A DNA stretch of 64,000 nucleotides from an uncultured Actinomycetes bacterium (lineage in GTDB: Bacteria; Actinomycetota; Acidimicrobiia; Spongiisociales; DATADW01), in assembly GCA_963758695.1 (NCBI GenBank), contig CAVWWM010000002.1:1651-65650 (forward strand), in the 5' to 3' direction. A program made the translations under genes and the position numbers. Of the stretch, positions 1 through 64,000 are shown one piece after another. Position 1 is the stretch's first letter. Each line of letters starts with the position of its first letter. The notes below the pieces were generated by a model that searched no databases, was not told the DNA's origin, and saw nothing but the letters and a program-made list of their open reading frames with translations.

Positions 1-192
1 CCGGTGCTGAAGGAGGGACCGATCGCACCGAGGACCTACGCCATCATGCCCCCAGACCGTTGGATGGGCAGAGTGCATGGCGGACGTCGATTGCGCGCCA
101 CCGCCTCCTCATTCTGAAACCATGCAGGTTGGAGGTCACGGTCCCCAGCGGGTGGGAATCATTCGCCGGCCACGCTCGTCCTGGCGCCGCCA

Positions 193-632
193 TTGCCTGC
201 GGAAGGCCCTGACGGCGCCGGGCTGGCCTTCGGGTGGTACGCCGTGGGACTTCACTCGGAACCCTGTCGCCCTGCGCCTCACAGCACGCCCGACATCCTG
301 ATCGGTCCGACTGTGGATGAATTCGTCGACGCGGTCATCGCTCATCCATCGCTGGATGTCACCGCCCCGGTCGATGTCGAACTTGGTGGCTATACAGGGC
401 AGTTCCTCACGCTGACCGCCCCGTCAGACATCACCGGCTGCGCCGACTGGCGCCCTTGGGAGCATGGGATCCCGCGCACAAGGCCCTGACAACATCTGGA
501 ACCTCTGGGTCGTCGACGTGGACGGGCTTCGGGTGATCGTGCACAGCGAGGAGTTCCCAGGAACCTCCGAGGAAGGATAAGGCCGAACTTAGGGCGATTG
601 CCGAGTCAATCCGCTTCGTGCCTGAGCCATAA
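193..632 (+). pseudogene. fragmented conserved hypothetical CDS (5' extent unclear, at least two frame changes)
   Basis: Protein-like translation VDEFVDAVIAHPSLDVTAPVDVELGGYTGQFLTLTAPSDITGCADWRPWE (ORF 193..489). It continues sensibly as NIWNLWVVDVDGLRVIVHSEEFPGTSEE and then DKAELRAIAESIRFVPEP-stop (630-632) only after frame changes near 480 and 575. Confidence 0.3.
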
Positions 633-1259
633 GCGCTGTCTGGCACCAGGGACAACGTGTCTCGGACGATGCGGGCGTCGTGTGTTGGACCATGGAACCC
701 TCGAAGGTCGCATGTCGGGCCAACATCGACTTCGAGATATGGCACCGCTCCATCCGGCGGCGCTGCCGAGAGTGCGAGCGGCTGCAGCGTCGGGGTCTGC
801 TCGTCGAGTGACGCTCCCGTTGGTATACGCAGGTCGGATACCAAACGCTCATTTGGGATAAAAACCCCATGTATTGATTGGGGCCCCTCCACTTGTTGGT
901 GGGTGGTCACGTAGCGTGGCCTCGGGAGGGGCTCCGGCCGTGACGAAAAAGCCCTGGGCCTTGGGGCCCGTTGACCTGATCGTTCCCGGAGCCCGTTCTC
1001 GAGCAGACCCGGTTGAGGAAATTGGTGGGATCTGATCGGCCTGGCCTCGGGTCCGGTGCACCGTATGAATCACATGGCTGGGTGGGCTACGTCGGCTGCC
1101 TGGCGATGTCGGGTGGGGTCGGGAGCATCCCTGAGCTTTTGGTCGAGCGCGAGCGAGGGGTTCTCCCGGGAACAATCAGTTGCGGGCGTCCCGGCCTAGC
1201 AGAGATGTAATCCCCATCTGGGCTGGCGGTGTCCGCTCGTGTGAAGGGAGAACCCCTCG

Positions 1260-3715: not shown

Positions 3716-3732
3716 CTAGTCAGATCACCTTC

Positions 3733-4758
3733 CTACCAGTACTCCTCATAGTGAACATTCCCTTTGACCCCTCGGCGGTCGATGGTGAAACCCATCTCGT
3801 GGAGGATCTGGCACATCCCCACCGTTTCGGGGAACGTTGGTTCGTCGCCCTCCCATTCGGCGAGCCCGATCATCGCCGGATTACCGCACAGGTAGACGTG
3901 GGTGGTGGTGGGGTCGAGGTCCGTCCCAAGAGCTACCGCTAGCGAGCCGTCGGCGGCAAGCTCCTGGAGATAGCGCTTGGGAGCGCCACCCGGGTCACGA
4001 GTTATGACCGGCAGGTAGTGGTAGTTGGGGTACCGCTGCTCCAATTGGTGGTGCTCCTCGATGTAGGCGAGGTCATCGGGGTACCGCACCGAGACCGCAC
4101 CGAGGATCGGCCCGTAGTGACCCTTGCGGAGCAGTTCCACCACCATGGCGTTGTGCGGCGCCTCGCCGGTCCCGGTGGAGAGGAAGAGAACGGGGGCGGA
4201 TGGGTCGTCAACCGCATCGAGCGTGTATCTCCCCGCCATCTTCGGTCCCAGGTAGACCCGGTCGCCGACTCGTTTCAGGGCGAGGCGGGGGGTGAGACCG
4301 GGGATGCGATCGCCCTCCGGCGCCACCAGGACGATGTACAGCTCGATCTCGTCCTCGTGGACCGGGTCCACCATGTACCCGCGGGTGTCGAACAACGGGC
4401 TAGAGATGGAGTAGGAGCGGCGGATCAGCTTCTCCCGGTTCGCCTCGGGGATAAGGTCGTCGACGTCGTCGATTCGCGGCTCCCATGCCCCCATCCCGAG
4501 AGTGCAGTACTGCCCCACCCGCCACGGCGCCTGGCCGCCGTCGGGACGCACCCTGAGCCGCCACAGCTCGTTGTGGGCGGTGTCGAAGTGGGTGATGGTG
4601 GCGTTGTAGTGCTGGGCCCGCAGGTCCTCGACCCTATGGGCGTCGATCTGGAAGCCGTGCTGGGGCCCGGCCAGGTCGGGGAGGGTGGGGAAGCACGCCT
4701 CCCGGATCGCCTCCCATGCCCGCCCCGACGGGACGAGGTGGTCCTGTGCCGGCTCCAC
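3733..4758 (-). CDS. ferredoxin-NADP+ reductase (plant-type FNR family)
   Basis: RSYSISS (FAD RxYS motif), LFLSTGTGEAP (NADPH GTGxAP motif) and the aromatic C-terminus ...VHYEEYW. GTG start. Confidence 0.85.
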   Translation of the reverse strand: MEPAQDHLVPSGRAWEAIREACFPTLPDLAGPQHGFQIDAHRVEDLRAQHYNATITHFDTAHNELWRLRVRPDGGQAPWRVGQYCTLGMGAWEPRIDDVDDLIPEANREKLIRRSYSISSPLFDTRGYMVDPVHEDEIELYIVLVAPEGDRIPGLTPRLALKRVGDRVYLGPKMAGRYTLDAVDDPSAPVLFLSTGTGEAPHNAMVVELLRKGHYGPILGAVSVRYPDDLAYIEEHHQLEQRYPNYHYLPVITRDPGGAPKRYLQELAADGSLAVALGTDLDPTTTHVYLCGNPAMIGLAEWEGDEPTFPETVGMCQILHEMGFTIDRRGVKGNVHYEEYW

Positions 4759-5495
4759 ACCGTGCTGTCCTCCAACACGAACAGACCTTCCGGAGCTTGC
4801 TCACCGGCTTCCAGTAGCCCCTCGAGTGACGGGTCGGAGGCGACGCCGAGAGCGAAGACGACGTGGTCGAACTGGAGGTCAGGGGTGCGGCGATCCTCGA
4901 ACACGGCCATCGGGTACCCGCCGACATCGTCTATGGCCGACGGCTCGGAACGCCAGAGGACGGTGACCATCTGCTGTCGCTCCAGGTCGGAGAGGGTGCG
5001 GCGGGTCAGCGATGAGAGATCGGCGAACTCCCCGGTGAAGCAGAGCACCACCCGGGCGTCCCCCTCCACCAGTTCGAAAGCCGCCGCCGCGGCCCGTTCT
5101 CCCGGACCGACCACCAGCACATCCAGGTCCCGGGTGGCCAACCCCAAGGCCCGGAAGTGGATTCGATCCTCGAGCGACACCGGGAGTTCGTATGCGGGTC
5201 GAAGGGGCGTCTCGGTGGTTCGCTCGGCAATGGCACACGCCGTCGCCTGGAAGGTGTCAGCCACCGACTCGACGAGGACCGATCCATCGGGACCTCGCCC
5301 AATGCGTCGCAGCGGTGATTGGTAGCGGACGGTCAGGCCGTAGCGGCCAACCGCGTCCAGGGGCCGGACAGCGTCGCTCCCCGCGAGCACCAACACCCTC
5401 GCCAGTCCGGCGTGCTCCGCCTCTACCGCTAGCGAGAGCGCCGCCGGCGTCCCCCCGGCGACGATCAGGTCATACGACGCCACCACGGAGTTCAC
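4425..5495 (-). CDS. FAD/NAD(P)-binding oxidoreductase; the domain-like part ends near 4760 and the rest is an out-of-frame read over the FNR gene
   Basis: Two Rossmann dinucleotide motifs (YDLIVAGGTPAALSLA and DVLVVGPGERAAAAA). GTG start at 5495 overlaps the ligD stop (GTGA). There is no stop codon until 4425, and the last ~110 codons are an Arg/Pro/Ser-rich tail. Confidence 0.55.
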   Translation of the reverse strand: MNSVVASYDLIVAGGTPAALSLAVEAEHAGLARVLVLAGSDAVRPLDAVGRYGLTVRYQSPLRRIGRGPDGSVLVESVADTFQATACAIAERTTETPLRPAYELPVSLEDRIHFRALGLATRDLDVLVVGPGERAAAAAFELVEGDARVVLCFTGEFADLSSLTRRTLSDLERQQMVTVLWRSEPSAIDDVGGYPMAVFEDRRTPDLQFDHVVFALGVASDPSLEGLLEAGEQAPEGLFVLEDSTVWSRHRTTSSRRGGHGRRSGRRASPPSPTWPGPSTASRSTPIGSRTCGPSTTTPPSPTSTPPTTSCGGSGCVPTAARRRGGWGSTALSGWGHGSRESTTSTTLSPRRTGRS

Positions 5496-6984
5496 CGACC
5501 CGGCGACGCCCCCACGGTGGCCAGGTCCTCGAACCGGCACTCGCGGGGATCCTTGTCGTCACGCAACCCCTTGAACGACGGAGCGCGCAGCCGCCCCGCA
5601 TCGGTCAGTTGGCGGTACTCGACCGTCGCCACCAACTCGGGCTCCACCCACCGGACCTGACGCACCTGGGGGACCGCCTTGCGCTCGACAGCGTCGAGCA
5701 CGGGTTCCTTCCGTTCGCGGGTTGCCAACTCGGACAACACCGCAGCGAGCGAATCGCGGTTGAACCCGGTGCCGACGTTGCCGACGTAATGGAGCCCCTC
5801 GCCTTCGTAGGCTCCGAGGACCAGCGATCCAATCGTCCCCGACCGGTTGCCGGCACCCGGTCGCCACCCGAGCACAACGACATCGGCGTCGAGCACCGTC
5901 TTGATCTTCACCCAGTCGGGCGAGCGGCGTCCCGGGTGATAGCGCGAATCGATGCGCTTCGCCATCACACCCTCCAAACCCTGCGCCTTCGCCGCGTCGT
6001 AGAGCGCTATCCCCGAGCCGGCAACGACCGGTGACACCTGGAGTGTGTTCGACGGAACGACGATCTCCCCAAGCAAGCTCTGTCTCTCGGTGAGAGGACG
6101 AGCGGTCAGGTCCTCCCCGTCGAGGTAGAGCAGGTCAAAGGCCATGTAGGTCACAGGAGCTGACCGGGACGCCCTCTCGACATCAGCCGGTCTGCGGAGG
6201 TGCATGCGGTGCTGCAGCGCCTGGAACGAAGGGATCCCGTTCTCCAACGCTATGACCTCACCGTCGAGCATGGCACTTGTCGCCACCAGCCGGTCGTAGA
6301 GTCCCGCCAGTTCGGGATAGGCGACGGTGACATCGTGGCGGTTGCGCGATACCAACCGGGTCTCGTGGGTGCAGGTCGCGATGGCGCGGATGCCGTCCCA
6401 CTTCGGCTCGAAGCTCCATCCCGGTCGTCGAAGGCGTCGTCACCGAGTGTGGCCAGCATCGGCTCCGGCTGCGGGAATGGCGCCGGCGGAGGACGGAGAT
6501 CCTCGGAGAGGATGGCGAGCCACTGCTCTTTTCCCTGCTCCGTGCCGGTTCGTATGAGGTGCCAGATGCCGCGCAGCCGCTCTCCCTCCAGCCGGAAAGT
6601 GAGTTTCCCCGGTTCGCGGTCGAGCATCTCGTAGTCGCCCCGGTCGAAGATCCGGACCTCCCCACCCCCGTATTCACCTTTCGGGATCGATCCGGAGAAG
6701 GTGCGGTACTCCCACGGGTGGTCCTCGACGTGGATGGCGAGGGTGCGTACGCCCGGGCGCAGTGGGAGGCCCTTGGGCACCGCCCAGCTCACCAAGACAG
6801 GGGTGTCGCCGTTGAGCATCTCCAGCCGGACGTCGTGGTGGAGCCGTGTCGCATAGTGCTGCTGGATGACGAAGTGGTTCCCAGGTTTCGCAACCGCCGG
6901 ATCGACATCCCCGGCGAAGGAACCGGGCGGCTCCGGTGTGCGCTCGAAGCTGCGCTTGCGGTCGTACTCGGAGGTCTTGGCCAT
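5492..6984 (-). CDS. ligD: LigD-type ATP-dependent DNA ligase, phosphoesterase + ligase domains, one frame change near 6418
   Basis: N-terminal 3'-phosphoesterase motifs FVIQQHYATRLHHDVRLE...WAVPKG (ORF 6250..6984). The ligase adenylation motif EPKWDGIR and the OB-fold part lie in the frame of ORF 5492..6355. Junction ...DDAFDDRD|WSFEPKWDGIRA needs a 1-nt shift. No polymerase domain. Confidence 0.85.
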
Positions 6985-7012
6985 CAGGCCCGTGCCCGCC
7001 CACTGTCACGGA

Positions 7013-7711
7013 TCACTTCGCCGCTGCCCGCGCCTTGGCCAATTGCTCCTTCTTCTGTTCGATCCGCCGCTGCGCCGAGTCGACGACCCGCTGGGCCTGG
7101 TCGGCGTGCCGGCGCGCCTCCTTGGCCTCCTTCTGGAGCGAAGACATCTCTCCCTCGAGTTGAGCCACCTCCTCGGTCAGGGCGGCGATCCGGGCGTCTG
7201 CCTTGCTGGGCCTGGGCGGTCGAGGCTCGGATGGCGGAGCGGCAGTCAATGCGACCTCGCCAAACCCCGAAAGCTCCAACTCGGCGGTGAGCCTGCCATC
7301 ACGCAGCGCCTCTTCGGCGGAGGGGTCGGAGGCGGTGGCGAGCAAGGTTCGGGCCATCCGTTCCCTGGTCGACTCGGCCGCGCCCAGCCCCGCCTCTTCG
7401 AGGAGCTCTGCGGCCCGGTCCACCAGCTTCCGCACCACACGAAGGCGCTCGTCCGAAGCCTTCCTCGTGTCGGCGACCGACGCCGCACCCCTGAGCGAGG
7501 CGTTCGCCTTCCCGAGGGCCTTGATCAGGATGGGAGCATGGCGAGCCAATTGGTCGAGGCCCCAAACCACGGTCGTCGGCTTGCGGAGCCCCGCCACCTC
7601 GGCGGCCTCGGTCTCGTTGCCACCGGCTCGCAGTTCCTTGGCGATCCTGTTGCGCGTGGCGACGAACTCGTCCAACGGGACGCCAAACAACTCCGCAAGG
7701 CGGTCGGTCAT
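7013..7711 (-). CDS. hypothetical protein with C-terminal coiled coil
   Basis: Likely ATG at 7711 (MTDRLAELFGVPLDEFVATRN...). The tail EEVAQLEGEMSSLQKEAKEARRHADQAQRVVDSAQRRIEQKKEQLAKA is heptad-like. No family recognised. Confidence 0.5.
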   Translation of the reverse strand: MTDRLAELFGVPLDEFVATRNRIAKELRAGGNETEAAEVAGLRKPTTVVWGLDQLARHAPILIKALGKANASLRGAASVADTRKASDERLRVVRKLVDRAAELLEEAGLGAAESTRERMARTLLATASDPSAEEALRDGRLTAELELSGFGEVALTAAPPSEPRPPRPSKADARIAALTEEVAQLEGEMSSLQKEAKEARRHADQAQRVVDSAQRRIEQKKEQLAKARAAAK

Positions 7712-7796
7712 CACCGACACGCTATCCGGCTCGCTGGCCCTAGTGGGCTGCGCGGTTCGGCGGTGGTCCCGGGCGTCCCGGTTAGCCTCGACCGAC

Positions 7797-9713
7797 GTGC
7801 CCAAAGCCACTGCCGATCCGGCTCCGCTCCAGCTGACCGACGACGACCTGTTCCTCTTCAACGAGGGGAACCATTTCCGCCTCTACGACAAGTTCGGCGC
7901 CCACCTCGGTGCTCGAAAGGGCGTGGATGGAGCCTTCTTCACCGTGTGGGCGCCGGACGCCGAATACGTGTCGGTGATCGGAGAGTTCAACGAATGGGAA
8001 CCGGGCGACAACCCGCTCGCCGTGAAGGGCGACTCCGGGATCTGGACGGGGTTCATCGCCGGGGTTGGCGAGGGGTCTACGTACAAGTACCACATTGCAT
8101 CGCGCCACCGTGGCTACCGGGTGGACAAGGCAGACCCGTTCGCCTTCGACAACGAAGTGCCGCCGGCAACGTCGTCTGTGGTGCGCGACCTGGCCTACCA
8201 GTGGGGCGACCAGAGTTGGATGACCGCCCGAGCCCGGCGGGACCTGCGGAGGGATCCGGTGGCGATCTACGAGGTCCATCTCGGCTCGTGGATGCGCGAT
8301 GTTGACAACCGCCCGTTGGGTTACCTCGAGGTTGCCGATCGCATGGTCGAGCATCTCGACAACCTTCATTTCACCCATGTCGAGTTCCTCCCCGTCATGG
8401 AGCACCCCTATGAGGGCTCCTGGGGGTACCAGTCGCTCGGCTACTTCGCACCGACGGCTCGGTTTGGGAGCCCTCAGGACTTCATGACTCTGGTCGACCG
8501 TCTCCACCAGGCCGGTTACGGGGTGATCTTCGACTGGGTGCCGTCGCACTTCGCGGTCGATCTTCACGGTCTCGTCTACTTCGACGGAACCCACCTCTAC
8601 GAGCACGCTGATCCCCGCCAGGGGTTTCACCCCGATTGGGGCACCTTCATCTTCAACTACGGGCGCAACGAAGTCCGGAGCTTCCTCATCTCGTCGGCGC
8701 TCTTCTGGTTGGACCGTTATCACATCGATGGGCTGCGGGTCGACGCCGTCGCCTCGATGCTCTACCTGGACTATTCGCGACCCGCCGGACAGTGGATCCC
8801 CAACCGCTACGGAGGCAACGAGAACCTGGAGTCGATCGAGTTCCTCCGCAAGCTCAACGAGGCGGTCTACGAGTCGTACCCGGGGGTGGAGACGTTCGCC
8901 GAGGAGTCAACCGCCTGGCCCGGGGTGTCGCGACCGACATATCTCGGAGGGCTCGGGTTCGGGTTCAAGTGGGACATGGGGTGGATGCACGACACGCTTG
9001 ATTACCTGAGTCGTGACCCGGTGTTCCGCAGCCATCACCACACCGAGCTCACCTTCCGCGGGCTGTATGCGTGGACCGAGAACTATTGCCTGCCGCTGAG
9101 TCACGACGAGGTGGTGCACGGCAAGCGCTCACTGCTGGAGAAGATGCCAGGCGATGACTGGCAGAAGTTCGCCAACCTGCGACTGCTCTTCGTGAGCCAG
9201 TTCGCTCAATCGGGCAAGAAGCTTCTCTTCATGGGTGCCGAGATCGGCCAGCGGCGCGAGTGGAACCATTCGATCGGGGTCGACTGGCACCTCCGCCAGT
9301 TCGCGGCGCACGCCGGTGTCGAGCGTCTCGTGGCGGACCTGTGCCGGGTCTATCGCGACGAGCCTGCACTGCACGTCCTCGACTGTGACGCCGCCGGCTT
9401 CGAGTGGATCGAGGCCAACGACTGGCAGGGCAGCACCCTCGCCTTCCTCCGCAAGGACGATGGTGACGAGATCGTGCTGGTCGTGCTCAACGCCACACCC
9501 GTGCCCCGGTACAACTACCGGGTCGGCGTCCCCAGGGACGGGACCTGGACCGAGATCCTCAACAGCGACGCCCTCATCTACGGCGGGAGCGGGCACGGCA
9601 ACCTCGGCGAGGTCGAAGCGGTCCCCAACGGGACGCATGGGCGACCCTTCTCGATCGGGCTCACGCTGCCCCCCCTTGCCGGGGTGATGCTGCGCAATCG
9701 CCCCGCTCCGTGA
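7797..9713 (+). CDS. glgB: 1,4-alpha-glucan branching enzyme (GH13)
   Basis: LFNEGNHFRLYDKFGAH, then GH13 regions DWVPSHF, GLRVDAVASMLY, FAEESTAWP and LSHDEVVHGK. In-frame GTG at 7797. The ORF upstream of it (7203-7796) is antisense to the neighbouring gene. Confidence 0.9.
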   Translation: MPKATADPAPLQLTDDDLFLFNEGNHFRLYDKFGAHLGARKGVDGAFFTVWAPDAEYVSVIGEFNEWEPGDNPLAVKGDSGIWTGFIAGVGEGSTYKYHIASRHRGYRVDKADPFAFDNEVPPATSSVVRDLAYQWGDQSWMTARARRDLRRDPVAIYEVHLGSWMRDVDNRPLGYLEVADRMVEHLDNLHFTHVEFLPVMEHPYEGSWGYQSLGYFAPTARFGSPQDFMTLVDRLHQAGYGVIFDWVPSHFAVDLHGLVYFDGTHLYEHADPRQGFHPDWGTFIFNYGRNEVRSFLISSALFWLDRYHIDGLRVDAVASMLYLDYSRPAGQWIPNRYGGNENLESIEFLRKLNEAVYESYPGVETFAEESTAWPGVSRPTYLGGLGFGFKWDMGWMHDTLDYLSRDPVFRSHHHTELTFRGLYAWTENYCLPLSHDEVVHGKRSLLEKMPGDDWQKFANLRLLFVSQFAQSGKKLLFMGAEIGQRREWNHSIGVDWHLRQFAAHAGVERLVADLCRVYRDEPALHVLDCDAAGFEWIEANDWQGSTLAFLRKDDGDEIVLVVLNATPVPRYNYRVGVPRDGTWTEILNSDALIYGGSGHGNLGEVEAVPNGTHGRPFSIGLTLPPLAGVMLRNRPAP

Positions 9714-10768
9714 GCTTGAAGTCCCGGTTGGTGGAGCGGATCCGATCCGATGGCCCGATTGGGTTCGACGCATTCATGGATGCGGCGCTCTACGACCCCC
9801 AGGGTGGGTATTTCACTACGGGTCCGCTTCGGTCGGTGAAGGCGGGGGACTTCCTCACCAGCCCCGAGGTGAGTGCCATGTTCGGTGAGACGCTGGCGGT
9901 GTTCGTCGAGACCGAGCGGGTGCGGGCTGGGCGACCCGCCAAAGTTCACCCTGGTCGAAGTTGGGGCGGGGTCCGGCTCGCTGCTGGCCCCGCTGCTCGC
10001 CGCCTTGGAAGGGCCGGTGGAGTCCTGGGCGGTCGAGGCTTCCCCCGCGGCGCGCTTCGCCCTCGAGGAGGTGGTGCCGGGGAGGGTGGTGGATTCCCTG
10101 GAGCAACTGCCGCAGGGATTCATCGGTGTGGTGATCGCCAATGAGTTGCTCGACAACCTCCCCAGCGCCATGGCGGTGCGGACCGCCACCGGATGGGATG
10201 AGCGACTGGTGGGAGAGGCCGACGCCACCCTGGTAGAGGTGACGGCACCGGCCAGGGCCGAGGTGGCGTCGTGGGCGGACCGTTTCGCCGGACCCGCCCC
10301 GGTCGGTTCGATCGTCGAGGTGCAACTGGCGGCGGGAGAGTGGCTGGGTTCGGCGTTGCAACTGCTCGAGCATGGCGCCGTGGTGGTGATCGACTACGGC
10401 GACAGCGCCGAGGGGCTGGCGCCGCGCCGGGCCCAGGGCACGATTCGGACCTATCGCGCCCACCACATCGGTCCCGACCCGCTCGAGGAGCCCGGAGACA
10501 CCGACATCACCGCAGACGTCAACTTCACCGCCCTGGCGGCGGTGGCCGAGGAGCAGGCGCCATCTTCGAGGTCCATCGCCAGGACGACTTCCTCGCCGGT
10601 CTCGGATTGCGGGGCCGTCTCAGCGAGTTGCGATATGAGGAGCTCGACCTGGCACGCACCGATGACGCCCTCGCCCGGCTCAGCGTCAGGTCGCGCCGCA
10701 CCGAGGCGGAGACCCTTCTCCACCCACGGGGGCTGGGCGACTTCAGGGTTATGGTCGTTCGCCGATGA
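9710..10768 (+). CDS. MidA/NDUFAF7-type (DUF185) SAM-dependent methyltransferase, two frame changes (~9925, ~10556)
   Basis: FMDAALYDPQGGYF, TLVEVGAGSGSL, VIANELLDNLP, VVIDYGD and IFEVHRQDDFLAGLG are spread over three frames. Start GTG overlaps the glgB stop (GTGA). Confidence 0.75.
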
Positions 10769-10815
10769 GGGTCCATCCGACCGAGGGGGAACCGGTGGGG
10801 CGGTATCGGCGTCCC

Positions 10816-11305
10816 ATGCGCATGAGGCGGTTGGCCATCGTTCTTGCGTTCGGCTGGGCACTCACCGCTTGCGGCGCCGGAGATCTTGCCGCGCCTACGC
10901 TCCCCGCTGAGGAGACGACCACGACCGAAAACACTGCCGAGCCGCCACCCACCACGGGACGCCCCGCTCCGAGCCTTCCTCCAAGTCGACCCTTCCCACC
11001 GTTGTGACCACCAGCACCCTTGGTGTGACCGGCGAGGTCCCGGCGCGCTTCCTCGATCCGGTGGTGGCCGACGCCGCGGCTCGCGCCGAGGTGGAGGAGT
11101 CTTCTGTGTGGTGCTCACCGCCGCAGCCATGCAGTGGCCTGACGGCTCGCTGGGCTGTCCTGAGCCCGGCGTCATGTATACCCAGGCGGTCGTCGACGGG
11201 TCACAGATCGTGGTCGAGGCGGGTGGCGAAACCTACGACTACCGACTCGACGGCAGCGGCAACTTCAGGCTCTGTGATTCGCCAGTCGGGAAGCTGAGCC
11301 CTTGA
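10816..11305 (+). CDS. small lipoprotein, two frame changes (~10995, ~11100)
   Basis: Signal/lipobox MRMRRLAIVLAFGWALTAC. Later parts GVTGEVPARFLDPVVADAAARAEVEESS and VVLTAAAMQWPDGSLGCPEPGVMYTQAVVDGSQIVVEAGGETYDYRLDGSGNFRLCDSP lie in other frames. Confidence 0.5.
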
Positions 11306-11594: not shown

Positions 11595-14623
<3,029 letters not shown>

Positions 14624-45854: not shown

Positions 45855-45880
45855 CCGACGGGAACGAAGAAGGAGTTGTG

Positions 45881-48331: not shown

Positions 48332-48335
48332 CCCC

Positions 48336-49270: not shown

Positions 49271-49334
49271 CGGTAGACTCCGCCCAGGCGGGCTCACCGC
49301 CCTTTCCCCGCACGATCGAGCCGAGGGGAACCGG

Positions 49335-49408: not shown

Positions 49409-49432
49409 CTCCGCAAGGAAGCGATACGTGAG

Positions 49433-53377: not shown

Positions 53378-53460
53378 GAAACCTCCTTGTGGACTCCACG
53401 TCCGTCACGGAACTCGAACGACACGGCGGCCCACCGCCTCCACGGGCTCGTCACCTTCAT

Positions 53461-54015
53461 TCATCGGCCCCGCGCTTCTGACGTCAACGTGGCTGGGTAC
53501 GGGCCTGCGACGTCCCGCGCCTGGTTCGCGTTGATCAACGATTGACACGGCCCAGGCGCCGGTACTCGAGCGCACACGACGAGCGTGACGCGGTAGTCCT
53601 CTGGAGCGATCGTCGTTCCCTCACGGGGCTGTGGCTTCAGATCGACGAGTCGAACGACCAGGCCCTCGTATTCGGCATCCCGTCCGACGCGTTCGCTCGT
53701 GTGCAGCATGCGAGTGGCGGAGGCTGCGGGAGGTTTCTCCAGCATAGCTCCACGACAGCATCGCCAGCCCACACGCACTGACGTCCTGACGGGGCATCGC
53801 GAATCCTCGGTCACCCCTTCGAAGCGCACCAGCAGGTTCTCGTCAGCCAGGCGGGACGCCTCGTTGGCTTTCAACTCGAACGGCTCGCCGCGCTTCGCCG
53901 CTCCTGCCGGCTGACTGTTCTGTCCCAGCAGTGACGTCGCGAGGGCGATGACCGCGAGGGCGGTTGCCGGCAGACTCCTGATGAGCCCGCCTCGCTGAAT
54001 TAATTGGGAAACCAT
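53461..54015 (-). CDS. small secreted protein with DSRCP...CVWAG motif, two compensating frame changes (~53790, ~53745); 3' end uncertain
   Basis: Likely start MVSQLIQRGGLIRSLPATALAVIALATSLLG. FELKANEASRLADENLLVRFEGVTEDSRCP is followed out of frame by RQCVWAGDAVVEL, then back in frame LEKPPAASATRMLHTSERVGRDAEYEGLVVRLVDLKPQP. Confidence 0.45.
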   Translation of the reverse strand: MVSQLIQRGGLIRSLPATALAVIALATSLLGQNSQPAGAAKRGEPFELKANEASRLADENLLVRFEGVTEDSRCPVRTSVRVGWRCCRGAMLEKPPAASATRMLHTSERVGRDAEYEGLVVRLVDLKPQPREGTTIAPEDYRVTLVVCARVPAPGPCQSLINANQARDVAGPYPATLTSEARGR

Positions 54016-54133
54016 CAATGCCTTCCCTGCGTTCCTCAGTGTATACTCCCGGCGCTTGCCGGCGTCCGTGATTTCGATTCCGGTAAGTTCGAGCTCCCCA
54101 CCTGACCATTCGACCTTTCCTCCAGAAGGTGTC

Positions 54134-57100
54134 ATGAGAGCATCCATTCGCACCCTGACGTTGAGCGTTCTGTTGTTCGCGTTCGCGGTTCCGGTTCGCG
54201 GTCAACAGCCGTCGGCCGGCGCTGGCGCATCACCGGCAGAGCTGACCGCTGTCGCCGGAGGCATGGTGACCGCCTTCGACGCAGACGGAGTTCCAACCTT
54301 CATATGGGGAAGCGGACAGTCCGCTCCGGCGCTCGGCGCTCCGGAGGCGGCGGCACGCTGGCATCTGGGGCGGTTCGCTCGCGCATTCAGGACGTCCCCG
54401 GCCGAGCTTGCGTCGGCGCGCCTCGTCCAGTTGCAAGGGTGCCGTCCGGCGGCGTGATCGCACATTTCCGTCAGCAGCTCGGAGGTCTCGACATCTACGG
54501 CAGCGACGTCAAGGTGCTCATCGGCGACGACTCGCGCCTCGTCGCCATCACGGGTCGGCCTGTACGCCGTGGACGGCCGCGGTCCGGGACTCGAGTTCCA
54601 GGTTTCCTCCGTGCAGGCGCTCGCCAATGCGCTGTCGCACGTGTCGGGCGGCAGGGTGCAGACCGCGAGCATCGTCGGCATATCGCCGTCCGTCACGGAT
54701 ATCCAGAGTGGAGCGGGCACAGTCCAGTGGTTTCAACTTGCGGATCCCGCCGGCAGGGTGCTCGCCGACCCGGCCCCGGTCAAGCAGATCCTCTTTCCCG
54801 CTGGCGGTGCACTCGTTCCAGCGCACGAAGTCCAGTTCTATGCAGGCGCCGGCGACTCGAACGACTCGCTTGCCTTCCGCTACATTGTTGCGGCCAGCGA
54901 CGGGCGCGTGTTGGCGCGCCGGAACCTGACGGCGAGCGAGGGGCCGCAGGAAAGCGCGGGCGGATCCGAAAGGGCCCAGCCTGCGGAACCTCCTGCTGAA
55001 TTCCTCTACCGTGTATGGGCGGATGGGACAGGCGACCTGCGTCCGCAAGACGGGCCGCAGACCGACGTCACACCCCACCCGGCCGGCGTGCCGGACGACA
55101 CGGAGCCGCCATTCGTCCTGCCGAACCTGGTGACGATGGGCGGCTTCAACCACCCGCGAAGAGGAAGGGCTCCGTCTGAGCGCGGACGCTGAGAGGGAAG
55201 CCGACGGCGCGACGGCGGAGGCCGGCCTCGGGAGGCTCGGGAGAGTGGCGGACCCCTGGCTGCCGGCTGATGCGACGGAGACGTCAGGGAACAACGCGGA
55301 CGCGTACGTGGATCACTCGGCGCCGGACGGTGTCTCGGTCGGCGATTTCCGGGCCACGACCACGTCCCACGGACGTTCGACCGGACGTACGACACGGCGG
55401 CGCCTCCGCTCGCCAGCGTCGATCAATCGCAGGCCGCCATTACTCAGACCTTCTACACGGTCAACTGGCTGCACGATTACTGGTACGACTCCGGATTCAA
55501 CGAAGCCGCCGGCAACGCGCAGAAGGACAACTACGGCAGGGGCGGCATCGGCGGCGATGACATGCGCGTCGAGGTCCAGGACGACTACTTCGGCGGATCG
55601 CGCAACAACGCGAACATGTCCACGCCGTCCGACGGCGTGCGGCCGCGCATGCAGATGTTCGTGTTCTTGGGGCGCGAAACCCGCACGCTCAGGCTCATGC
55701 CGGGCGGTGACCTCGAGACGGGCAGCGCGTCGTTCGGCGCGGCCACCTTCGACATCACCGCCCCGGTCGTCCTGGCCAACGACGGCATGGGTCCGTCGCC
55801 AACCGATGCGTGCGAACCGCTTGTGGGCGTCGCCGGGCGAATTGTCCTCGTCGATCGCGGGACCTGCGCGTTCATTGAAGGCCGTTAACGTCGAGGCCGC
55901 GGGCGGGGTCGGCATGATCGTCGCGAATAATGTGGCCGGCCCGCCGCCAGGGATGGCGCGAGCCCATCCCCGTCACCATTGGGGCGCTCTCCATCACCCA
56001 GGCGGACGGAGCAGCCCTGAAAGCGGCGCTTGCGCTGGGGGCCGTCAGTGCGCGCATGCTCCGGCAGCCGGGGCTGGAGCGCGACTCGGCGCTCGACAAC
56101 CAGATCATCGCGCACGAGTGGGGTCATTACCTGCACCACCGCCTGGCTGATTGCGGGTTGCAGCAGTGCGGCGCGCTCAGCGAGGGCTGGGGAGACTTTC
56201 TCGCGCTGCACATGATGTCGCGCTGGGTGACAACCTCGACGGACGTACTCCGGCTCGGTGTACGCCAGCCGGATTTTCGGCGACTCCGCGTATTACGGCA
56301 TCCGGCGCTCCCCCTATTCCGTCGACTTCGCGAAGAACGGCTTGACGTTCCGGCACATCTCCAATGGAGAGCCGCTGCCCCCGGGACCTTCCCGGCGGCC
56401 CGAACTCGGAGGTGCACAACGCCGGAGAGGTCTGGACGTCGATGCTCTGGGAAGGCTATGTCGCGCTCCAGAAGGCGAACCCGTTCCCAAGGCGTTTCGA
56501 AGAGTCCGCCGCCGCATGTCCAACTACGTGGTCGCCGGCCTGCAGATGACGCCGCGCGACGCCACCTACACGGAGCAGCGGGACGCGATCCTCGCCGTAG
56601 CCGCGGCCGGCCGGAACAGGCGCGTTGACCTGGGCGTGCTCGCCAACGCGTTCGCCAGACGGGGGCCGGAAGCTGCGCCATTGCCCCGCCGCGGGCTCAC
56701 TGATTTCGCCGGCGTCACCGAGAGCTATACGAGGTCCGCCCCGCATCGAAATCGGCGCCATCAGCCTCGAGGTGGATCGGAGGTCGTGCGACGGCGACGA
56801 CTACCTCGACGCGGGCGAGCAGGGGTGGGTGGCCATCACGGTGATGAATGGCAGCGCCACGCCAATGCTGGATACGGTCGTCACGGTCAACTCGGCGACG
56901 CCCGGCATCTTCTTCCCTCGCGGCATTTCCGCGCGCATTCGCCGGATCGGCCGTTCAGCAGCGCCCGGGCGCGCATCAGGATCGCGCTCGACCGCACCGT
57001 CTCGGGCCTCGGCTCGCTCGATCTCGAGGTCAACGTGTCCAACGCAGAGGCCTGCGAGGCGGTTGTATCCCGGTCCTTCACGGAGAGGATCAACGCTGAC

Positions 57101-57695
57101 GATGTCGCCAATGCGTCGAGGATCGACGAAGTGGAGACGATGATCACGCCGTGGACCTCGCTGGAACCGATGCGAATGAGGTCTGGTCGCGGGTGGAGGC
57201 GACGCCGTCCAACCGCGCGTGGCTCGGCGCCGATCTCTCGGGGATCACGGACACGGCGCTGCAGTCGCCAGCGCTGCTCGCGAGCGCGACCGATCCGCTG
57301 GTGATCACGTTCGAACATCGCCACAGTTTTGAAGCGTTCGAAGACGACATTCTTCGATGGCGGGGTGATCGAGATCCCTCAACAACGGGGCCGCGTGGGA
57401 GGACATCACCTACGTCGACGACCCTGGCTACGGCGGCACGCTGTTCGAGGAGGCGGGCAACCCACTGGGCGGCCGCGACGCCTTCGTGGCTCAAAATGCC
57501 GGTGGCCGGCCCGTGACACGGTCACACTCGACCTCGGGCGCCATTACCGGGCCGGACCGTGCGCATCCGTTTCCGGATAGGCGCGGACGAAGCCGCGGGC
57601 GATGTCGGTTGGGAGATTGACAACATCACCGTTCGGGGACGACCAACACGCCATTCCCGATGCTGGTCGAAGACAGAAGTATGTGTAGACCGTAG
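54134..57695 (+). pseudogene. M36 (fungalysin-like) zinc metallopeptidase with PA-domain insert, at least a dozen frame changes
   Basis: Signal peptide MRASIRTLTLSVLLFAFAVPVRGQ. Catalytic motifs AHEWGHYLHHRL (HExxH), SEGWGDFLAL and NSEVHNAGEVWTSMLWE. PA-like segment RIVLVDRGTCAFIEG...AGGVGMIVANN. Fragments are spread over ORFs 54056.., 54304.., 54569.., 55245.., 55562.., 55930.., 56258.., 56364.., 56625.., 57151.., 57329.., 57559... Confidence 0.7.
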
Positions 57696-57739
57696 AGCGT
57701 CGCAGAGGAGGAGAGACGCAAAGTTACTCGAGTCGCCAT

Positions 57740-57808
57740 CTTCCGGCTGAAGCCGGAAGCCACACCGGGCACGAATGTCTGGCTGTGGCTTCCGGCTTTA
57801 GCCGGAAG
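57740..57808. repeat. pair of inverted GC-rich hairpin repeats (REP-like) between convergent genes
   Basis: cttccggctgaagccggaagccaca (57740-57764) and tgtggcttccggctttagccggaag (57784-57808). Each unit is itself a hairpin CTTCCGGC-loop-GCCGGAAG. Confidence 0.85.
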
Positions 57809-57827
57809 ATGACTGTAGCGGTGCGCT

Positions 57828-59234
57828 TTATTTCGTGAGCACTCGGATCGTGCCGTCGCCCTTGTTCAGCAGAAAGATCTGATTGTCCGGGCCCAGTATT
57901 CATCCGCAGATCCGCACGCGTCGCGGGCATCTTGCCCTGCGCCATGTTCTTGGCCTTGATCACCTCGAGGAAGGTCTTCGCCGTGCCGCCCTCGTTGAGC
58001 AGGATGCGGCGGATGGCATCCTGGCCGCCGCTCGGCAGGTTGTCCGCGTTCACGTAGAAGAGTTCGCCGCTGGGCATGTCGGCAAAGATCAGCAGGTTCG
58101 CGAGCTGCGGGACCTGGTTGCCGCGATAGACCACCAGGCCGCCGGCGGCGGACTGGGATTGCAGGAGCGGGTCGAGCTGTCCCCATTCGGCGATCGGATA
58201 GGTCACCTTCGGGTCGCCGCGCTGGTTTTCGAGCGCCACGCCTTGGCGCCCCCCGTATCTGTAGCTGCCCTCCCAGACGTTCCACCCGAGGTTGGCGCCC
58301 GGTGTGACGCGGCTGATTTCCTCGACAGTGCCCTGGCCGATGTCGGACATGAACATGGCGCCGTTGCGCGAGTCCCAGGCGAATCGCTGCGGATTGCGCA
58401 CGCCGTAGGCGTAAATCTCGGGGAGCGCGCCCGGCGTGTTTCGCATCGGGTTGTCGGCGGGGATGCCGTATTTCTTGTTCGCGCTGTTGTTGCCCAGCGG
58501 GTCGATGCGGAAGATCTTCCCGAACGCGATGCCCAGGTTCTGCGCCATGTTGAGCGGGTCGCCGCCGCTGCCGCCGTCCGCGACGCCCATGTACAGCAGG
58601 CCGAAGTCCGGAGAGTTCGGCTCGGCGAGCGGGTTGAAGGCGAGCATGCCGCCGTTGTGGTTCTGGAACGGGTCCCGCCATCGCATGAGCTCACGCGGCG
58701 CGCCGCCGTCGTAGGTCGCCGCGCCGGGGGTCTTGGCCGTCCACTCGAGCAGCACGGCATGGTGCGTGTCCATTCCGCCTGGTGCGGGATGGAAGTCCGC
58801 CGGCGGCGTCATGTTCGTGGTGTCGGTGTAGGTGTAGAACTTCCCGAAGCCCCGGCTGCCTTGCTGGTTGAACTGCGGGTGAACCGCGAAGCTCTGGAAG
58901 CCGCGCTCGCGGCCCATCGACTGGACCGGCACTCCCGCCGCGTTGATATCCAGGTACTTCGTGACCGTCTTGCCGTCCTCAGTGACCCGATAGAGCTGGC
59001 CGCGCATGTCGTTGACGAACACGCGGCGCGTCCCCGGCTCGGTGACGAGGTTCATCATGCGCGCCGCCACGCCGTCGATATCCGGCAGCGAGGCGAACTC
59101 CTGGTAGTTCACGCGGATGACGCCTCGGTCGCGGGAATGGCCGTCGGGAACGGGTCGGTGGGTGCCTGCGCGAGCACACCCAGGACCGGCAGCGACGAGA
59201 GTGCGATGACACGAATCACGTGTGTCATGGCCAT
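57828..59234 (-). CDS. PQQ-dependent sugar (glucose/sorbosone) dehydrogenase-type beta-propeller, two frame changes (~59125, ~57890)
   Basis: ERGFQSFAVHPQF, NHNGGMLAFNP, YAYGVRNPQRFAWD and DIGQGTVEEI. The signal peptide MAMTHVIRVIALSSLPVLGVLAQA and the true C-terminus DNQIFLLNKGDGTIRVLTK-stop (57828) are in other frames than the main ORF 57724..59685. Confidence 0.75.
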
Positions 59235-59348
59235 CTAACCTATCCGAATGCGCCATTCTTGTGTAGGGGACGGGAATGGGTTTCCATTTTCGTGCTCCAA
59301 GGCCTCTGTGTCTCGTGTCCCTGTGGCCCGTGGAACTGAAAAAACGCT

Positions 59349-60267
59349 TCAGCCACGGGCCTCCAGTGCCGCAGGTGTGAAGAAGTCGTCCGCGTTCCGG
59401 TGCTGGAATCCGAGCCGGCGCGCGAAACCTGGATCCTGCGCGCCTGCGCCGACGTAGATGCACTGCGAGACGTCGAGAAGATAGCGCTGAATGAACACGA
59501 CGCCCAGGCCGGGCAGCGGCTTGCGGCACCAGCAGGTCGGCGGCCCGGCGCCATGTGGACAGTACTGAACGTCGATGGACAGTCCCAACATCTCCTGCAT
59601 GCGCGCGAGCACGGCATCGACGTTGCCGGCGGACATCGTTCCTTCGGCGACGCGCGGTTGCCAGGACAGCCCCAGCACGCGCCAACCGGCGGCCTGATAG
59701 CCACGCAGCACTTCTCCGCGTTCGGCACGCACCTCGACATCCTCGACAGACGCCGGCGTGCGTGAGCCGGATCGGCTGCGATACAGAACGTCGTCACACC
59801 ACACGATGAGCGCGCGGTTCACAAAGGAAGGGTTGTGCCGGCGCTCGAATGGCATGACGTCAATCCGCGAGAACATCACGGAGGGATCCGGGGGCTCCAG
59901 ATCACGTTGATAGCGGAACTGCACTGCCGGACCGAATGACGCCGCGTCGAGCCGGGCGTTCCCCAACAGCGTCCGCCACGCGACGTTCACCTGTGCATCC
60001 TCGACGCTGGTCGAAAGCCAGACACACCGGACTGGAAGGCCGCGTTGCCCGGCGGCCTGAATCACGGCCGCCCTCGACTTGCGGGAGACATACGTATTGT
60101 CGAGGACGATGCGCGAACGTCCGGAGGCGAGTGCGCGATCGAGAGCCGGAAGCAGCCCGCGCAACGATCCGCCGACCTCGTCGCGGTTCAACCGCTGGTA
60201 GCCCTGCGCGACGAACGATCCGGCCACGGTGCTCTTCGGCGCCGGGCAGGCCAATAATCAGAACCAC
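59349..60267 (-). CDS. P-loop kinase (AAA_33/polynucleotide-kinase-like) fused to HAD-type phosphatase (GmhB/PNKP-like), frame change in the P-loop (~60236)
   Basis: VVLIIGLPGA then, after a 1-nt shift, KSTVAGSFVAQGYQRLNRDE. The C-terminal CPHGAGPPTCWCRKPLPG resembles the Zn-binding motif of histidinol-phosphatase-type HAD enzymes. Confidence 0.6.
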
Positions 60268-61176
60268 TTTACCATCCGCGTGCTCGGGCGCCGGACGATC
60301 GCGGCGCGCCTCGCGGAACCGCAGCGCCCGCCCGGCGGGAATCGCTCGTCCAGGCGCGCGCGATCGTCGGCGGTCAACGCGATTCCGCAGGCACGAGCCA
60401 CTGACCGCGCCGTTTCCACACGGGTGGGTCCGGAACGGGCAGCGCCAGGTCCGACAGGTCGGTCAGCCAGGCCAGAGCGATCTCGAACGGAGTGGCGCCG
60501 TGGCGCGCCGCCACATCCAGGAGCGCGGCATCACGACCAGTGCGATGCCGGCGCTGCGGCCCGCCGAGCGGCCGGTACCCAAGAAGCTGAATGCCGTGGG
60601 CGAGGCAGTATTCGGCCACGCCGCTCAAGATGTTCGTCCTGCCAGATGCTGAGCTCGACCTGTACCGAGGCAATCTCCGTGATGCGTCTGGCTTCCTCGA
60701 TCTGACCAACGTTCACATTGCAGAGACTGATCCCTGGATGAGCCCGTCGCGCTTCAACGAGGTCAGGGCGCGGACGCTGGTCGCCAGCGGCGTTCGCGGG
60801 TCGGGCGCGTGAAGCTGGTACAGGCGGATGCGCTCGACGCCGAGGGCGCGCCGGCGGCCCCGCACGCCGCGATGAGATGACGTGCCCGTCCATCCGCGAC
60901 CCAGTTGATGCGGCCGGGTGAGGCCGCCTTAGGTGGCCACCAGATGCGCGAGCGGTCGCCGTTCCACGCCGCCAGCGCTCGCGCGATCAACCGCTCGTTG
61001 TGGCCGGTACCGGTGTCGTCCCAGCAGTACACGTTCGCGGTGTCGAGAAAGTTGACGCCGGCATCGAATGCGGCATGCAGCACGGCGATGGCCCGATCCT
61101 CGTCGCGATCGCGATCGGTCGAGAGACGCATGCACCCCGCGCCGATAACCGGTGCACCCTCCGTCGTCCACGGCAT
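60258..61176 (-). pseudogene. aldo/keto reductase, at least three frame changes; may be fused in frame to the downstream kinase-phosphatase
   Basis: VIGAGCMRLS...AFDAGVNFLDTANVYC...GHNERLIARAL (catalytic Asp/Tyr region), GISLCNVNVGQIEEA, AEYCLAHGIQLLGYRPLGG and GIALTADDRARLDERFP, spread over ORFs 60763.., 60531.. and 60374... Confidence 0.65.
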
Positions 61177-61223
61177 GCCGCAAGTGTATCAAGGTGCGGG
61201 CCGCCCTGACCCTCGGCCGTTGT

Positions 61224-61372
61224 CTTCCGGCTGAAGCCGGAAGCCACATACCCAACTCCCAACGCCCAACGTGATGCTTGCCCCAACTCCCAAACAGTTG
61301 GGAATTGGCCCTTCCGTCGTGTTGGGAGTTGGAGTGAGAGTTGAGAGTGTGGCTTCCGCCTTCAGGCGGAAG
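61224..61372. repeat. about 150-bp imperfect palindrome bounded by the same hairpin repeat units (MITE/REP-like)
   Basis: Left cttccggctgaagccggaagccaca (61224-61248) and right tgtggcttccgccttcaggcggaag (61348-61372). The inner arms cccaactcccaac / gttgggagttgg are also inverted. Confidence 0.8.
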
Positions 61373-61421
61373 GCGGCAACTCAGCGGGCCCCGGGGCGGA
61401 GCTTGCCTAGCTGACGGGCTC

Positions 61422-61820
61422 ATGCCTTACAATCCGCGTCATGGCATCAGGTTCATCATCCCCGTCGCCGCCGCATGGGTCACCACGATTGCCCTGATCG
61501 CGCAGGGTAATCCGGAGGCGGCCAACTCAAAAACCCGGTCGCGTCGACGCCCGACTCAATCGCGGCGGGCAAGCAGCTTACACGAAAAACTGCGCCGCAT
61601 GTCATGGCATCAACGCAACAGGAGGGACGGGCAACGACATCGCGCCGCCGTCGCCGGATCTGACCGACGCCGAGTGGCTGCGCGGCGGGAGCGAGGCGAG
61701 ATCTTCTACGTGATCAAGAACGGGATCCCTCCCGATCTGAACATGCCCGCGTGGGGCGACCGCATGAAGGATCCCGATATCTGGAACGTCGTGAATTTCG
61801 TGGCGAGCCTGAAGAAGTAG
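61422..61820 (+). CDS. class I c-type cytochrome, three frame changes (~61528, ~61575, ~61688)
   Basis: N-terminal membrane/signal segment GIRFIIPVAAAWVTTIALIA. LKNPVASTPDSIAAGKQL, YTKNCAACHGINATGG (CxxCH) and EIFYVIKNGIPPDLNMPAWGDRM lie in three frames. Confidence 0.7.
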   Translation: MPYNPRHGIRFIIPVAAAWVTTIALIAQGNPEAANSKTRSRRRPTQSRRASSLHEKLRRMSWHQRNRRDGQRHRAAVAGSDRRRVAARRERGEIFYVIKNGIPPDLNMPAWGDRMKDPDIWNVVNFVASLKK

Positions 61821-62016
61821 GCCGGTGTCCGGCGGCTTCGGCCCTTCCGGCTAACCCGAAAGCGAAGCTCACTGAGTTCGCGATCACAACACACCAGGCA
61901 CCGAGACACCGAGGCGAATTTTTCCCACGGCGTCCTCGGTGCCTTTGTGCCCCGGTGTGCCGTAATCACGCGTGGACCGGATCGGGCCGGGTCCTTTCGA
62001 ACCCAGCCCCGTGAAT

Positions 62017-64000
62017 CTACTTCGCCAGCGGGTTCGGCCGTACCTGGAACTTGACGACCTTGCTCGTCGTCCCCTTCCGCCTTCGGCATGGAACGGGGCG
62101 CGCGTCGCGAACGTCGAGCAGATCCCCTTGCCTTTCCAGCCGCCGTTCGGATCGTCGATGCGTCCGTCCAGTCCCTTGCCGTAGTAGCCCATCGGATACG
62201 GCACGCGGAACGTCATGAACTTGCCGTCGACGAGGGCGAGCAGGGCTTCTGATTCGTTGCCCGTCGCGAGCGGAATGTCCTTGCCGATGCCCAGCATGTC
62301 GAAGCGATCGACGAAGTTGTAGTATGCGCTCTCAGCGCTGGCGGACTCGACCGCGCCCTTGTAGTTCGGCCCCGGGAAGGCGTACAGCGACCAGCCTTCG
62401 GGGCAGTGCTTGCCCGTCGCGTTCGGTCCGTTGAGCGGGGCCTTGCACTTGCGGCGATCGAAGCTCGCGTATTGGCCGCTCGACAGCACCGTCCAGACGA
62501 CGTTGTCGCTGTCGACGTCCATGCCGCGCGGCGCAAAGCCCGAGCCCGACGCTTTCGGATCCTTGAACGGCACCTCGTAGACCTCGGACAGCGCCGTTTC
62601 CGGAGAATTCGATCCGAGCGAGAGGCGCACGACCAATCCCGGCATCCCGGTAACCGATCCCCAGATCGCGTTGCCCTTCGGCTCGGGCGCGACGCCGTAG
62701 AAGGCCGTGACGACGCGCTTGTCCTTGGTCGGATCGACCGGCTGATCGGGCTCGACATACGCATCGCGCTTGCCGTTGCCGTTGGTGTCGAGCACGAACG
62801 CCGTCCAGCCCTGCGCCTTCTTCTCGTCGCCCGTCTTGTCGAAGATGCGCGTGTCGAACCAGCCCTCGACCGGGCCGCCGCCCGGTGAACCACAGCACGT
62901 CGTTGTTGTCGAAGTTGAGGTGATGCGTCCCGAAGCAGGTGTCGATCGTCGTGATCTTCTTCGTCTTCGGGTCATACAGCTGCATCTGGCGTCCGCTCTG
63001 GGTGATCGGGAACGCCTTCGCCGATGGATGATCCGAGCCCTGCCGGCACCACTCCGCGGTCTGGTTGGGACGGATGCGCGCCGCAACCCACACGCGCGCC
63101 TGCTTGTCCATCGCGAAGCTGTGCGCGCTGGACTGCGCCGTCCAGATCACCTCATCGCCCCAGTACGGCGAGGAGGCCGCCGGCGGCGTATCGGCTTCGC
63201 TCGGCGTTTTCGGATCGCGGACCTGCAGCTTGACCATGCTCGCCGTGTTCGTCTTCGGATCCACGACGGGCAGGTAGTCGCCGGAGGCCTCGAGCGCGCC
63301 GTAGATCGGTCCGTTGGCGTTCACCCTCGGGTTGCGCTTGTCGCTGGCAATCTCGTCGTGCAGGTAGTGGCGCGGATCCGCCCAGTCCCACAGCGTGATG
63401 ACGACGTTGCGCTCGCGGCCCTGCGGGCGCGGCGGCGCGGCCTGCGGCAGCTCGCCGCCGGCAATGCGATCAGTCCAGTCGGCGTACATCGCCAGCGCGC
63501 GCTGGCGGCCCACCTGCGTGAAGCGGTTGCTCATCCCGGCGCCCGCCTGGCCCGACTGGATGCGGCGATCCCACGCGGCGGCGCCGGAGTCGAACACGCC
63601 AAGGCTCTTCGGAACTTCGCGCGTCGCCTTGTTGCCGAGCGCATGGCAGCCAGTGCAGCCGTCGGTGTTGACGATGTTGCGAACCCACTCGCCCTGGCTC
63701 TTGCATCGTTGGGCGAGATGCCGTTGCCCTGCGGGCCGGTGCCGGGGAAGTCGCTGGCCGGCGGGACCTGCAGCAGCGAGAACCAGTACAGCGCCGGGTA
63801 ATACTCGGCCGCTGACTTGGCATCGGGTGCGGGAACCGCCTTCAGGTTCACGGTCTTCCCGGGCGCCGACTGCGACTTCGGCGAATCGACGAGGCCGTAG
63901 CCGCGCACCCAGACGTCGTAGTTCGCCTTGGGCAGGTCGGGGAGCAGGTAGCGCCCTGGTCGTCGGTCACGACGACCTTCACCATTTTCGTCGGCAGGTC
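62017..64000 (-). pseudogene. large secreted protein: CarboxypepD_reg-like N-terminus, CxxCH haem motif and beta-propeller-like body. 5' end lies outside the window; four frame changes (~62075, ~62885, ~63705, ~63953)
   Basis: VKVVVTDDQG|RYLLPDLPKANYDVWVRGYGLVDSPK, NIVNTDGCTGCHALGN, then a long body through ORFs 62332..63597 and 61884..63086. True end GTTSKVVKFQVRPNPLAK-stop at 62017. Confidence 0.6.

Follow-up and report, generated by a model that had tools for sequence, protein, structure and literature searches.

Contigs that join pieces of different genomes are a standard artefact of metagenomic assembly. Metagenome-assembled genomes (MAGs) built from long reads alone and covered less than about 40-fold need polishing, as insertions and deletions (indels) fragment their gene calls, and microdiversity strongly influences MAG fragmentation (Sereika et al., 2022, PMC9262707). 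Here, we analysed a stretch of 64,000 nucleotides (the window) of an uncultured actinobacterium, comprising bases 1651–65650 of contig C2 (CAVWWM010000002.1) of a bin of 2.82 Mb, 32 contigs and 66% G+C (G000; GCA_963758695.1), in which many recognisable genes, including a peptidase S8 gene and a tuf copy, are split by single-base frame breaks. We put the probability at about 0.87 that these breaks are not mutations of the organism but consensus indel errors, clustered by the mixing of strains or paralogs and by a misjoined foreign tail. The indels are private to the window, are contradicted by short-read contigs and are enriched at variable sites, and the contig contains a chimeric join at position 52388.

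Among the described cases, the indel-fragmented long-read MAGs recognised by the IDEEL test (Sereika et al., 2022, PMC9262707) come close to this genome, as both feature gene-splitting single-base indels throughout the genome, a low completeness despite few contigs and breaks that are absent from a relative of short-read appearance. In contrast to those MAGs, most indels described here lie outside homopolymers, insertions are in excess, and about half of them resemble two alleles written in tandem. Strain-mixture artefacts of the consensus, in the form outlined in the Strainy preprint (bioRxiv 10.1101/2023.01.31.526521), are alike in that errors arise where related sequences collapse; unlike in cases of the type outlined there, the collapse is deduced here from an allele signature measured against other species, together with one paralog and a pair of allelic contigs from short reads. 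Finally, the join at 52388 resembles other inter-genome chimeric contigs, with two genes cut and butted against each other and the true continuation starting another contig of the same bin. It shows nothing unusual in comparison with them and is easily recognised, as it falls into an essential ribosomal protein gene.

The estimated completeness of the genome is just 72%, and the public sequencing runs having 31-mers in common with the window are soil metagenomes; the runs listed included neither one of the source sample nor a Nanopore run. Four genomes of the same genus (G002–G005) consist of 10–20 contigs with a completeness of 77–85%, and their copies of a 1019-aa protein are found as pieces in different frames, whereas a fifth (G001; 440 contigs, 93% completeness) carries an intact copy. 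On the basis of contig counts, completeness and the broken or intact state of this gene, these data suggest a long-read origin, with indel errors, for contiguous bins of the G002–G005 type and a short-read origin for G001. We infer that the platform behind the window was probably long-read and that low local depth probably adds to the errors.

Codon log-odds were trained on 978 long open frames from this genome and used to locate frame breaks by a Viterbi path with seven states (six frames and non-coding), whose switches over the window were compared with stop and start positions. At the listed break sites, the old frame continues for 40–800 bases or the new frame lacks a start. A plain frame plot of G+C at third codon positions was too weak for following the frames and was replaced by this model. 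Nearly all frame hops listed in a preliminary description, which had been made from the sequence alone, reappeared within a few bases when codon usage, Pfam domains and same-genus alignments were combined. The same-strand switches lie at 474, 572, 3012, 6415, 9922, 10556, 10982, 11097, 15504, 17603, 36711, 36893–37092, 37631, 46417 and 46717, for which the preliminary coordinates were 480, 575, 3028, 6418, 9925, 10556, 10995, 11100, 15508, 17606, 36713, 36930 and 37085 (both within 36893–37092), 37615, 46420 and 46719, respectively; the path adds a site at 4757 that was absent from the earlier list. The hop listed at 48808 was missed by the path and became apparent from the Pfam profile of the affected gene, which encodes an extracytoplasmic function (ECF) sigma factor (48320–48900, + strand; break at about 48808–48815). 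Its Sigma70_r4_2 match covers only profile positions 1–34 of 54, and region 4 continues as AALGISETAAKVRLHRA in another frame.

Translations read through the breaks yield complete Pfam domains, e.g., profile positions 1–204 of 204 for the LigD ligase domain, and the Peptidase_M36 match is divided over two pieces. Moreover, three alignments with same-genus genomes (A1, the S8 gene with four relatives; A2; A3), which together cover about 7 kb of the window base by base, revealed about 40 single-base indels private to the window, with more insertions than deletions (about 25 vs. 14 in the aligned regions). Outside the S8 gene, they comprise an insertion at 9918 and deletions at 10553, 10977 and 11107 (A3), as well as insertions at 36715, 37608 and 37647 and deletions at 36929 and 37082 (A2). 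G001 showed no private indel in A1 and A2, the two alignments that include it. G003, G004 and G005 have private indels of their own, nearly all of them insertions and at positions other than those of the window, and G003 features a hot spot of its own at 9.9–10.4 kb.

The densest hot spot is the gene of the peptidase S8 (subtilase with a PA domain; 11601–14639, − strand), for which the preliminary description had postulated a dozen or more breaks. Here, we found 12 net frame switches with about 31 single-base indels beneath them (about 21 insertions and 10 deletions), as well as a divergent C-terminal third; the Pfam domain Peptidase_S8 spans residues 179–622 of the read-through. Projected on the open frame of G005, the gene contains no stop in 950 codons. 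Differences to G005 number 110/78/251 at the codon positions 1/2/3, with 193 synonymous and 147 non-synonymous codon changes, and the intact orthologs of G001, G003 and G004 show the same kind of pattern. Neither in-frame stops nor an even spread over codon positions, as expected of a pseudogene, were thus found in the S8 gene. As about 31 indels have left no nonsense codon and the pattern of selection persists, we conclude that this gene is not decaying.

Next to the S8 gene, G002–G005 carry about 3.0 kb more than the window (2985–3000 bases, at 11448/11449). In G005, this extra sequence is most of an open reading frame (ORF) of 1064 aa located in tandem with S8, of which the window retains the two ends. 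A search of the window's own genome for this neighbouring gene, as a possible mis-assembly, yielded no match, and its absence may reflect a real deletion or a skip in the assembly. A derivation of the C-terminal third of S8 from this neighbour was considered and rejected, as the sole DNA similarity between the two genes lies elsewhere, at 13.8–14.1 kb (67–70%).

Independent evidence was provided by Logan contigs assembled from short-read runs of soil. At eight sites, these differ from the window by exactly one base. The clean stretch at 18.2–36.0 kb has no such site; 80 contigs with an identity of 97% or more, taken from four short-read runs as a control, contained no indel there. At 4761, 6422 and 17602 they have one base more than the window, and at 37648 (run X1) and at two intergenic places one base fewer; the contigs at these sites show 0–2 mismatches to the window. 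The extra bases in the S8 gene at 14101/14102 and 14118 are absent from Logan contigs that diverge from the window by a few per cent. In run X2, two allelic contigs cover the position 14101/14102, one lacking the C and the other lacking the G, while the window has CG. For the tail behind the join, related contigs in run X7 disagree with the window at 56738 and 62884, by one base each.

Breaks of this kind recur throughout the genome. With the strict and conservative Viterbi criterion, about 1,356 candidates were found genome-wide (4.8 per 10 kb, or about one per 2 kb), and contig C2 is average for the genome with likewise 4.8 per 10 kb. That the breaks are distributed too unevenly for uniform random error, as proposed from the window alone, is borne out by this larger set: the variance-to-mean ratio of the counts per 5-kb bin is 3.35 (P ~ 1e-138), 150 of these bins are free of candidates vs. 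51 expected, and there are 11 gaps of at least 17.3 kb, of which eight reach at least 17.8 kb (0.27 expected). Break density is autocorrelated over short distances, with a coefficient of 0.44 at 2 kb and no correlation left by 10 kb. Break density was not correlated with compositional oddity over the genome (Spearman 0.09, P = 0.15), which excludes chimeric pieces as the general cause of the hot spots.

What clusters the errors is indicated by the inserted bases themselves. For the isolated window-private insertions in A1 and A2, we compared the inserted base with the alleles found in the relatives, using as null model a random base at a random place, which is conservative with respect to gap placement. 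In 14 of 24 cases the insertion equals the allele of the relatives at a directly adjacent column where the window differs (null 0.139, P = 4.9e-7), and six of 11 deletions coincide with columns in which the relatives themselves differ (null 0.194, P = 0.01). A stricter calling over A1–A3 gave 10 matches among 20 insertions (P = 1.9e-4), and the private insertions of G003 follow the both-allele pattern as well (6/13, P = 0.007). An origin in homopolymers or methylation motifs was also considered and set aside, as only about 20% of the insertions extend a short run; about 30% show neither such a run nor the both-allele pattern.

The same signature is found in the gene tuf, encoding EF-Tu (45870–47071, + strand), which contains two inserted bases, at 46421 and 46718, with the EF-Tu Pfam domains spanning both breaks and all three of them complete in the read-through. 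A second copy of the same genome (C9:137254–138453) is 99.3% identical with two gaps and is open for 402 codons. Both insertions adjoin synonymous differences from this paralog: at the first, “ctt gag” vs. “ctg gag” has become “cttggag” (“cttGg”), and at the second, “ctt ttg” vs. the CTG alternative (TTG/CTG) has become “ctgtctg” (“ctgTC”). To judge from these sequences, each insertion reads as both alleles written in succession. The second tuf copies of the relatives are only 87–92% identical to the window copy; compared with this, the identity of 99.3% suggests that the copies underwent recent gene conversion or that there was cross-talk in the consensus.

Since insertions carry alternative alleles, the tuf insertions sit on paralog differences and run X2 holds allelic contigs, a mixture of sequences can be deduced, and we conclude from this signature that a large share of the errors probably arises where two versions of a locus have collapsed into one consensus. 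According to this model, the breaks would originate as single-base consensus errors in a highly contiguous, probably long-read bin of a soil metagenome. Read piles would contain two slightly different versions of a locus, stemming from strains or from a near-identical paralog such as tuf, and at a variable site of such a mixed pile, the consensus would often contain both alleles in tandem (+1) or lack the site (−1). Hot spots would then be locally variable genes, e.g., the S8 protease gene, and stretches with a uniform population would come out clean. A second cause of the clustering is the final 11.6 kb of the window, a fragment of another organism that is misjoined inside rplJ and probably poorly supported by reads.

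The evidence for this join is of several kinds. The preliminary description had noted that nearly every gene past 53.4 kb is affected, which holds with about 14 Viterbi switches plus two indels flanking the GSDH gene; its account of the dirty window end did not name the cause, which is a chimeric join at 52388 to a sequence of another phylum. DNA similarity to all five relatives stops at 52386–52388, and beyond 52388 none of them matches in the searched part up to 60000 (60001–64000 lay outside the search). The 5′ part of rplJ, encoding the ribosomal protein L10 (52052–52388, + strand), is cut after codon 112, and the 3′ part of an MBL-fold gene follows in reverse complement, so that both genes lack their ends. 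The remainder of rplJ, together with rplL, begins at base 1 of contig C7 (C7:1–1200). The tetranucleotide distance of the tail from the genome mean lies at the 99.6th percentile of 10-kb pieces, while the body of the window lies at the centre. Its GSDH-family protein is 94% identical to that of a Vicinamibacterales MAG, with the next matches in Acidobacteriota and Gemmatimonadota. Runs that hold the window body show only scraps of the tail, except for one 204-base contig in X2 that is 95% alike. As relatives, composition and sample distribution all change at 52388 and rplJ continues on C7, the stretch 52389–64000 is a Vicinamibacterales-like (Acidobacteriota) fragment misjoined inside rplJ. 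It represents 11.6 kb of a tail of 12.4 kb on contig C2.

Nearly all genes of the tail, including those of an MBL-fold protein, an M36 protease and GSDH, are broken. The Viterbi path switches at 54552, 55148, 55355, 56513, 56743, 56915, 57134, 57313, 57376, 62881, 63702 and 63950, and indels at 57896 and 59124, on either side of the GSDH gene, were found in comparison with a 94% relative (L028). This density of breaks suggests poor read support in the tail. At three short sequences of the tail (57738–57765, 61224–61249 and 61348–61373), very many soil-metagenome contigs join unrelated flanks; these look like a widespread conserved or repeated element of 25 bases in the organism group of the tail.

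Several points speak against consensus errors clustered by mixing. About 40% of the insertions and 45% of the deletions fall outside the mixed-allele pattern, so that another error source contributes, with homopolymers (about 20% of the insertions) and low depth as candidates, and the relatives used as proxy for polymorphism are other species and not co-occurring strains. Moreover, the Logan contigs are shallow (depth 2–6) and may stem from other strains, which means that any single disagreement with the window could be a strain difference. To this it can be replied that, within a coding region, a one-base difference between strains would be a frameshift in its own right. At 474, 572 and 3012, the Viterbi path is the sole support for a break, without homologs or reads. 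A small residue of breaks, or the 3-kb loss beside the S8 gene, could be real strain differences.

A plainer explanation would be random read error at low coverage, with clusters arising from fluctuations of the local long-read depth and no mixing of strains or paralogs. It would accommodate the 10 of 24 insertions and five of 11 deletions that lack a variable-site signature, and an autocorrelation fading by 10 kb fits the scale of read lengths as well. Contig-end bins are also slightly richer in breaks (5.5 vs. 4.4 per 10 kb, P = 0.017), and indel load has been linked to a coverage below 40x (PMC9262707). However, inserted bases match the relatives' alternative allele at the neighbouring column at four times the rate expected by chance (P = 5e-7), both tuf insertions fall on paralog differences, and hot spots as narrow as 0.3–1 kb lie between long clean stretches. 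Taken together, we regard this explanation as unlikely.

Consensus error and a mixture of strains or paralogs were two of three options named in the preliminary description, and both stand, the latter on the basis of the tandem alleles and the X2 contigs; the third, real decay of some genes, is contradicted by the S8 and tuf genes. Decay would turn the S8 protease gene, one copy of a duplicated tuf and the genes of the tail into true pseudogenes of the population. The deposited sequence does contain the breaks, the loss of one tuf copy could be tolerated as a second is intact, and the absence of the relatives' 3-kb gene beside S8 indicates an evolving locus. Yet the S8 gene, despite its roughly 31 indels, shows no stop in 950 projected codons and substitutions biased to the third position, unbroken versions exist in short-read contigs, and the contiguous relatives each have private breaks elsewhere while the fragmented G001 has none. 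With one break per 2 kb, about half of the genes would be inactive, and a genome in this state would not be viable. Decay is rejected as highly improbable. Programmed frameshifting or another form of recoding, by which the breaks would be read through, has nothing in its favour except the existence of +1 and −1 breaks; the contexts are heterogeneous without a common slippery motif, none of the aligned orthologs shares a break position, nor does the intact tuf paralog, and a single gene contains up to 31 of them. We therefore consider recoding to be practically negligible.

With consensus error as the preferred reading, the breaks are not a real biological feature and are uninformative on the biology of the organism. 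For users of the genome, it follows that about half of the genes are split and that the completeness of 72% is lowered by errors. Calls of the type “pseudogene,” “frameshift” or “gene fusion” are suspect until polishing, including the junction of rplJ with the MBL-fold gene and everything past 52388. A small practical lesson is that error hot spots in such bins point to genes that are duplicated or vary locally, and a 1-bp insertion adjoining a synonymous variable site is a tell-tale of this error. The tandem-allele signature may help in diagnosis, but it reflects the software and not biology. Tentatively, and with the odds somewhat against it, such insertions could systematically mark collapsed microdiversity in highly contiguous soil MAGs that were probably built from long reads. 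If so, hot spots in these MAGs would map the genes in which co-occurring strains differ (here, that of a secreted S8 protease) and could be used to flag errors and to read population variability without access to the reads.

Apart from the S8 and tuf genes and the tail, affected and clean stretches alternate along the window. The contig head (1–3718) is variable and has no synteny with the closest relatives, as synteny with G002–G005 starts at 3716–3734; it contains the candidate switches at about 474, 572 and 3012 and a gene for an IS110-type transposase (1248–2517). A moderately affected stretch follows at 3778–11270, with private indels at about 4761 (deletion), 6422 (deletion), 9918 (insertion), 10553, 10977 and 11107 (all deletions). 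The genes hit here encode a ferredoxin-reductase-like protein, LigD, a Methyltransf_28 protein and a small secreted protein, and Pfam domains span the switches. Behind the S8 gene, a regulator gene of the STAND/LuxR type with Guanylate_cyc and AAA_16 domains (14854–18146, + strand) is broken at about 15504 and 17602. Its AAA_16 domain, located behind the cyclase domain, spans the 15504 break, and at 17602, where the window lacks a C, short-read contigs of the runs X2 and X3 have the extra C.

The stretches at 18.2–36.0 kb and 38.2–45.4 kb had been described as free of breaks, and each switch found there is indeed an ordinary gene junction with stop and start a few bases apart. The first (18200–36000) holds about 17 intact genes including the 1019-aa ORF. 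Between the two, a gene for a secreted protein without a Pfam match (36133–38135, + strand) forms a hot spot of 1 kb, with the five private indels of A2. The second (38235–45407) has a possible extra intergenic base at 40130, seen in one X1 contig only, and holds two tandem paralogs whose 5′ parts are identical over 630 bp (41961–42590 and 42982–43611, 100%). Such a perfect identity in an otherwise error-prone assembly could itself be an effect of the consensus.

Three further observations concern duplicated or neighbouring sequences. In the relative G004, two contigs (its C8 and C15) both cover the part of the window at 28–52 kb, with identities of 91% and 95%, which implies that closely related genomes co-occur in that sample and were binned together. 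The IS110-type transposase element of the contig head (861–2680) has a second copy on contig C8 of the window's own genome (C8:41007–42827), which is 96% identical with 13 gaps; the two copies differ mostly by indels, as expected if both hold consensus errors. Downstream of the ECF sigma factor gene, the ORF of the anti-sigma factor (48897–49436) continues across a tRNA-Trp gene (49335–49409), and a further frame break is probably located near 49.1–49.2 kb in this region.

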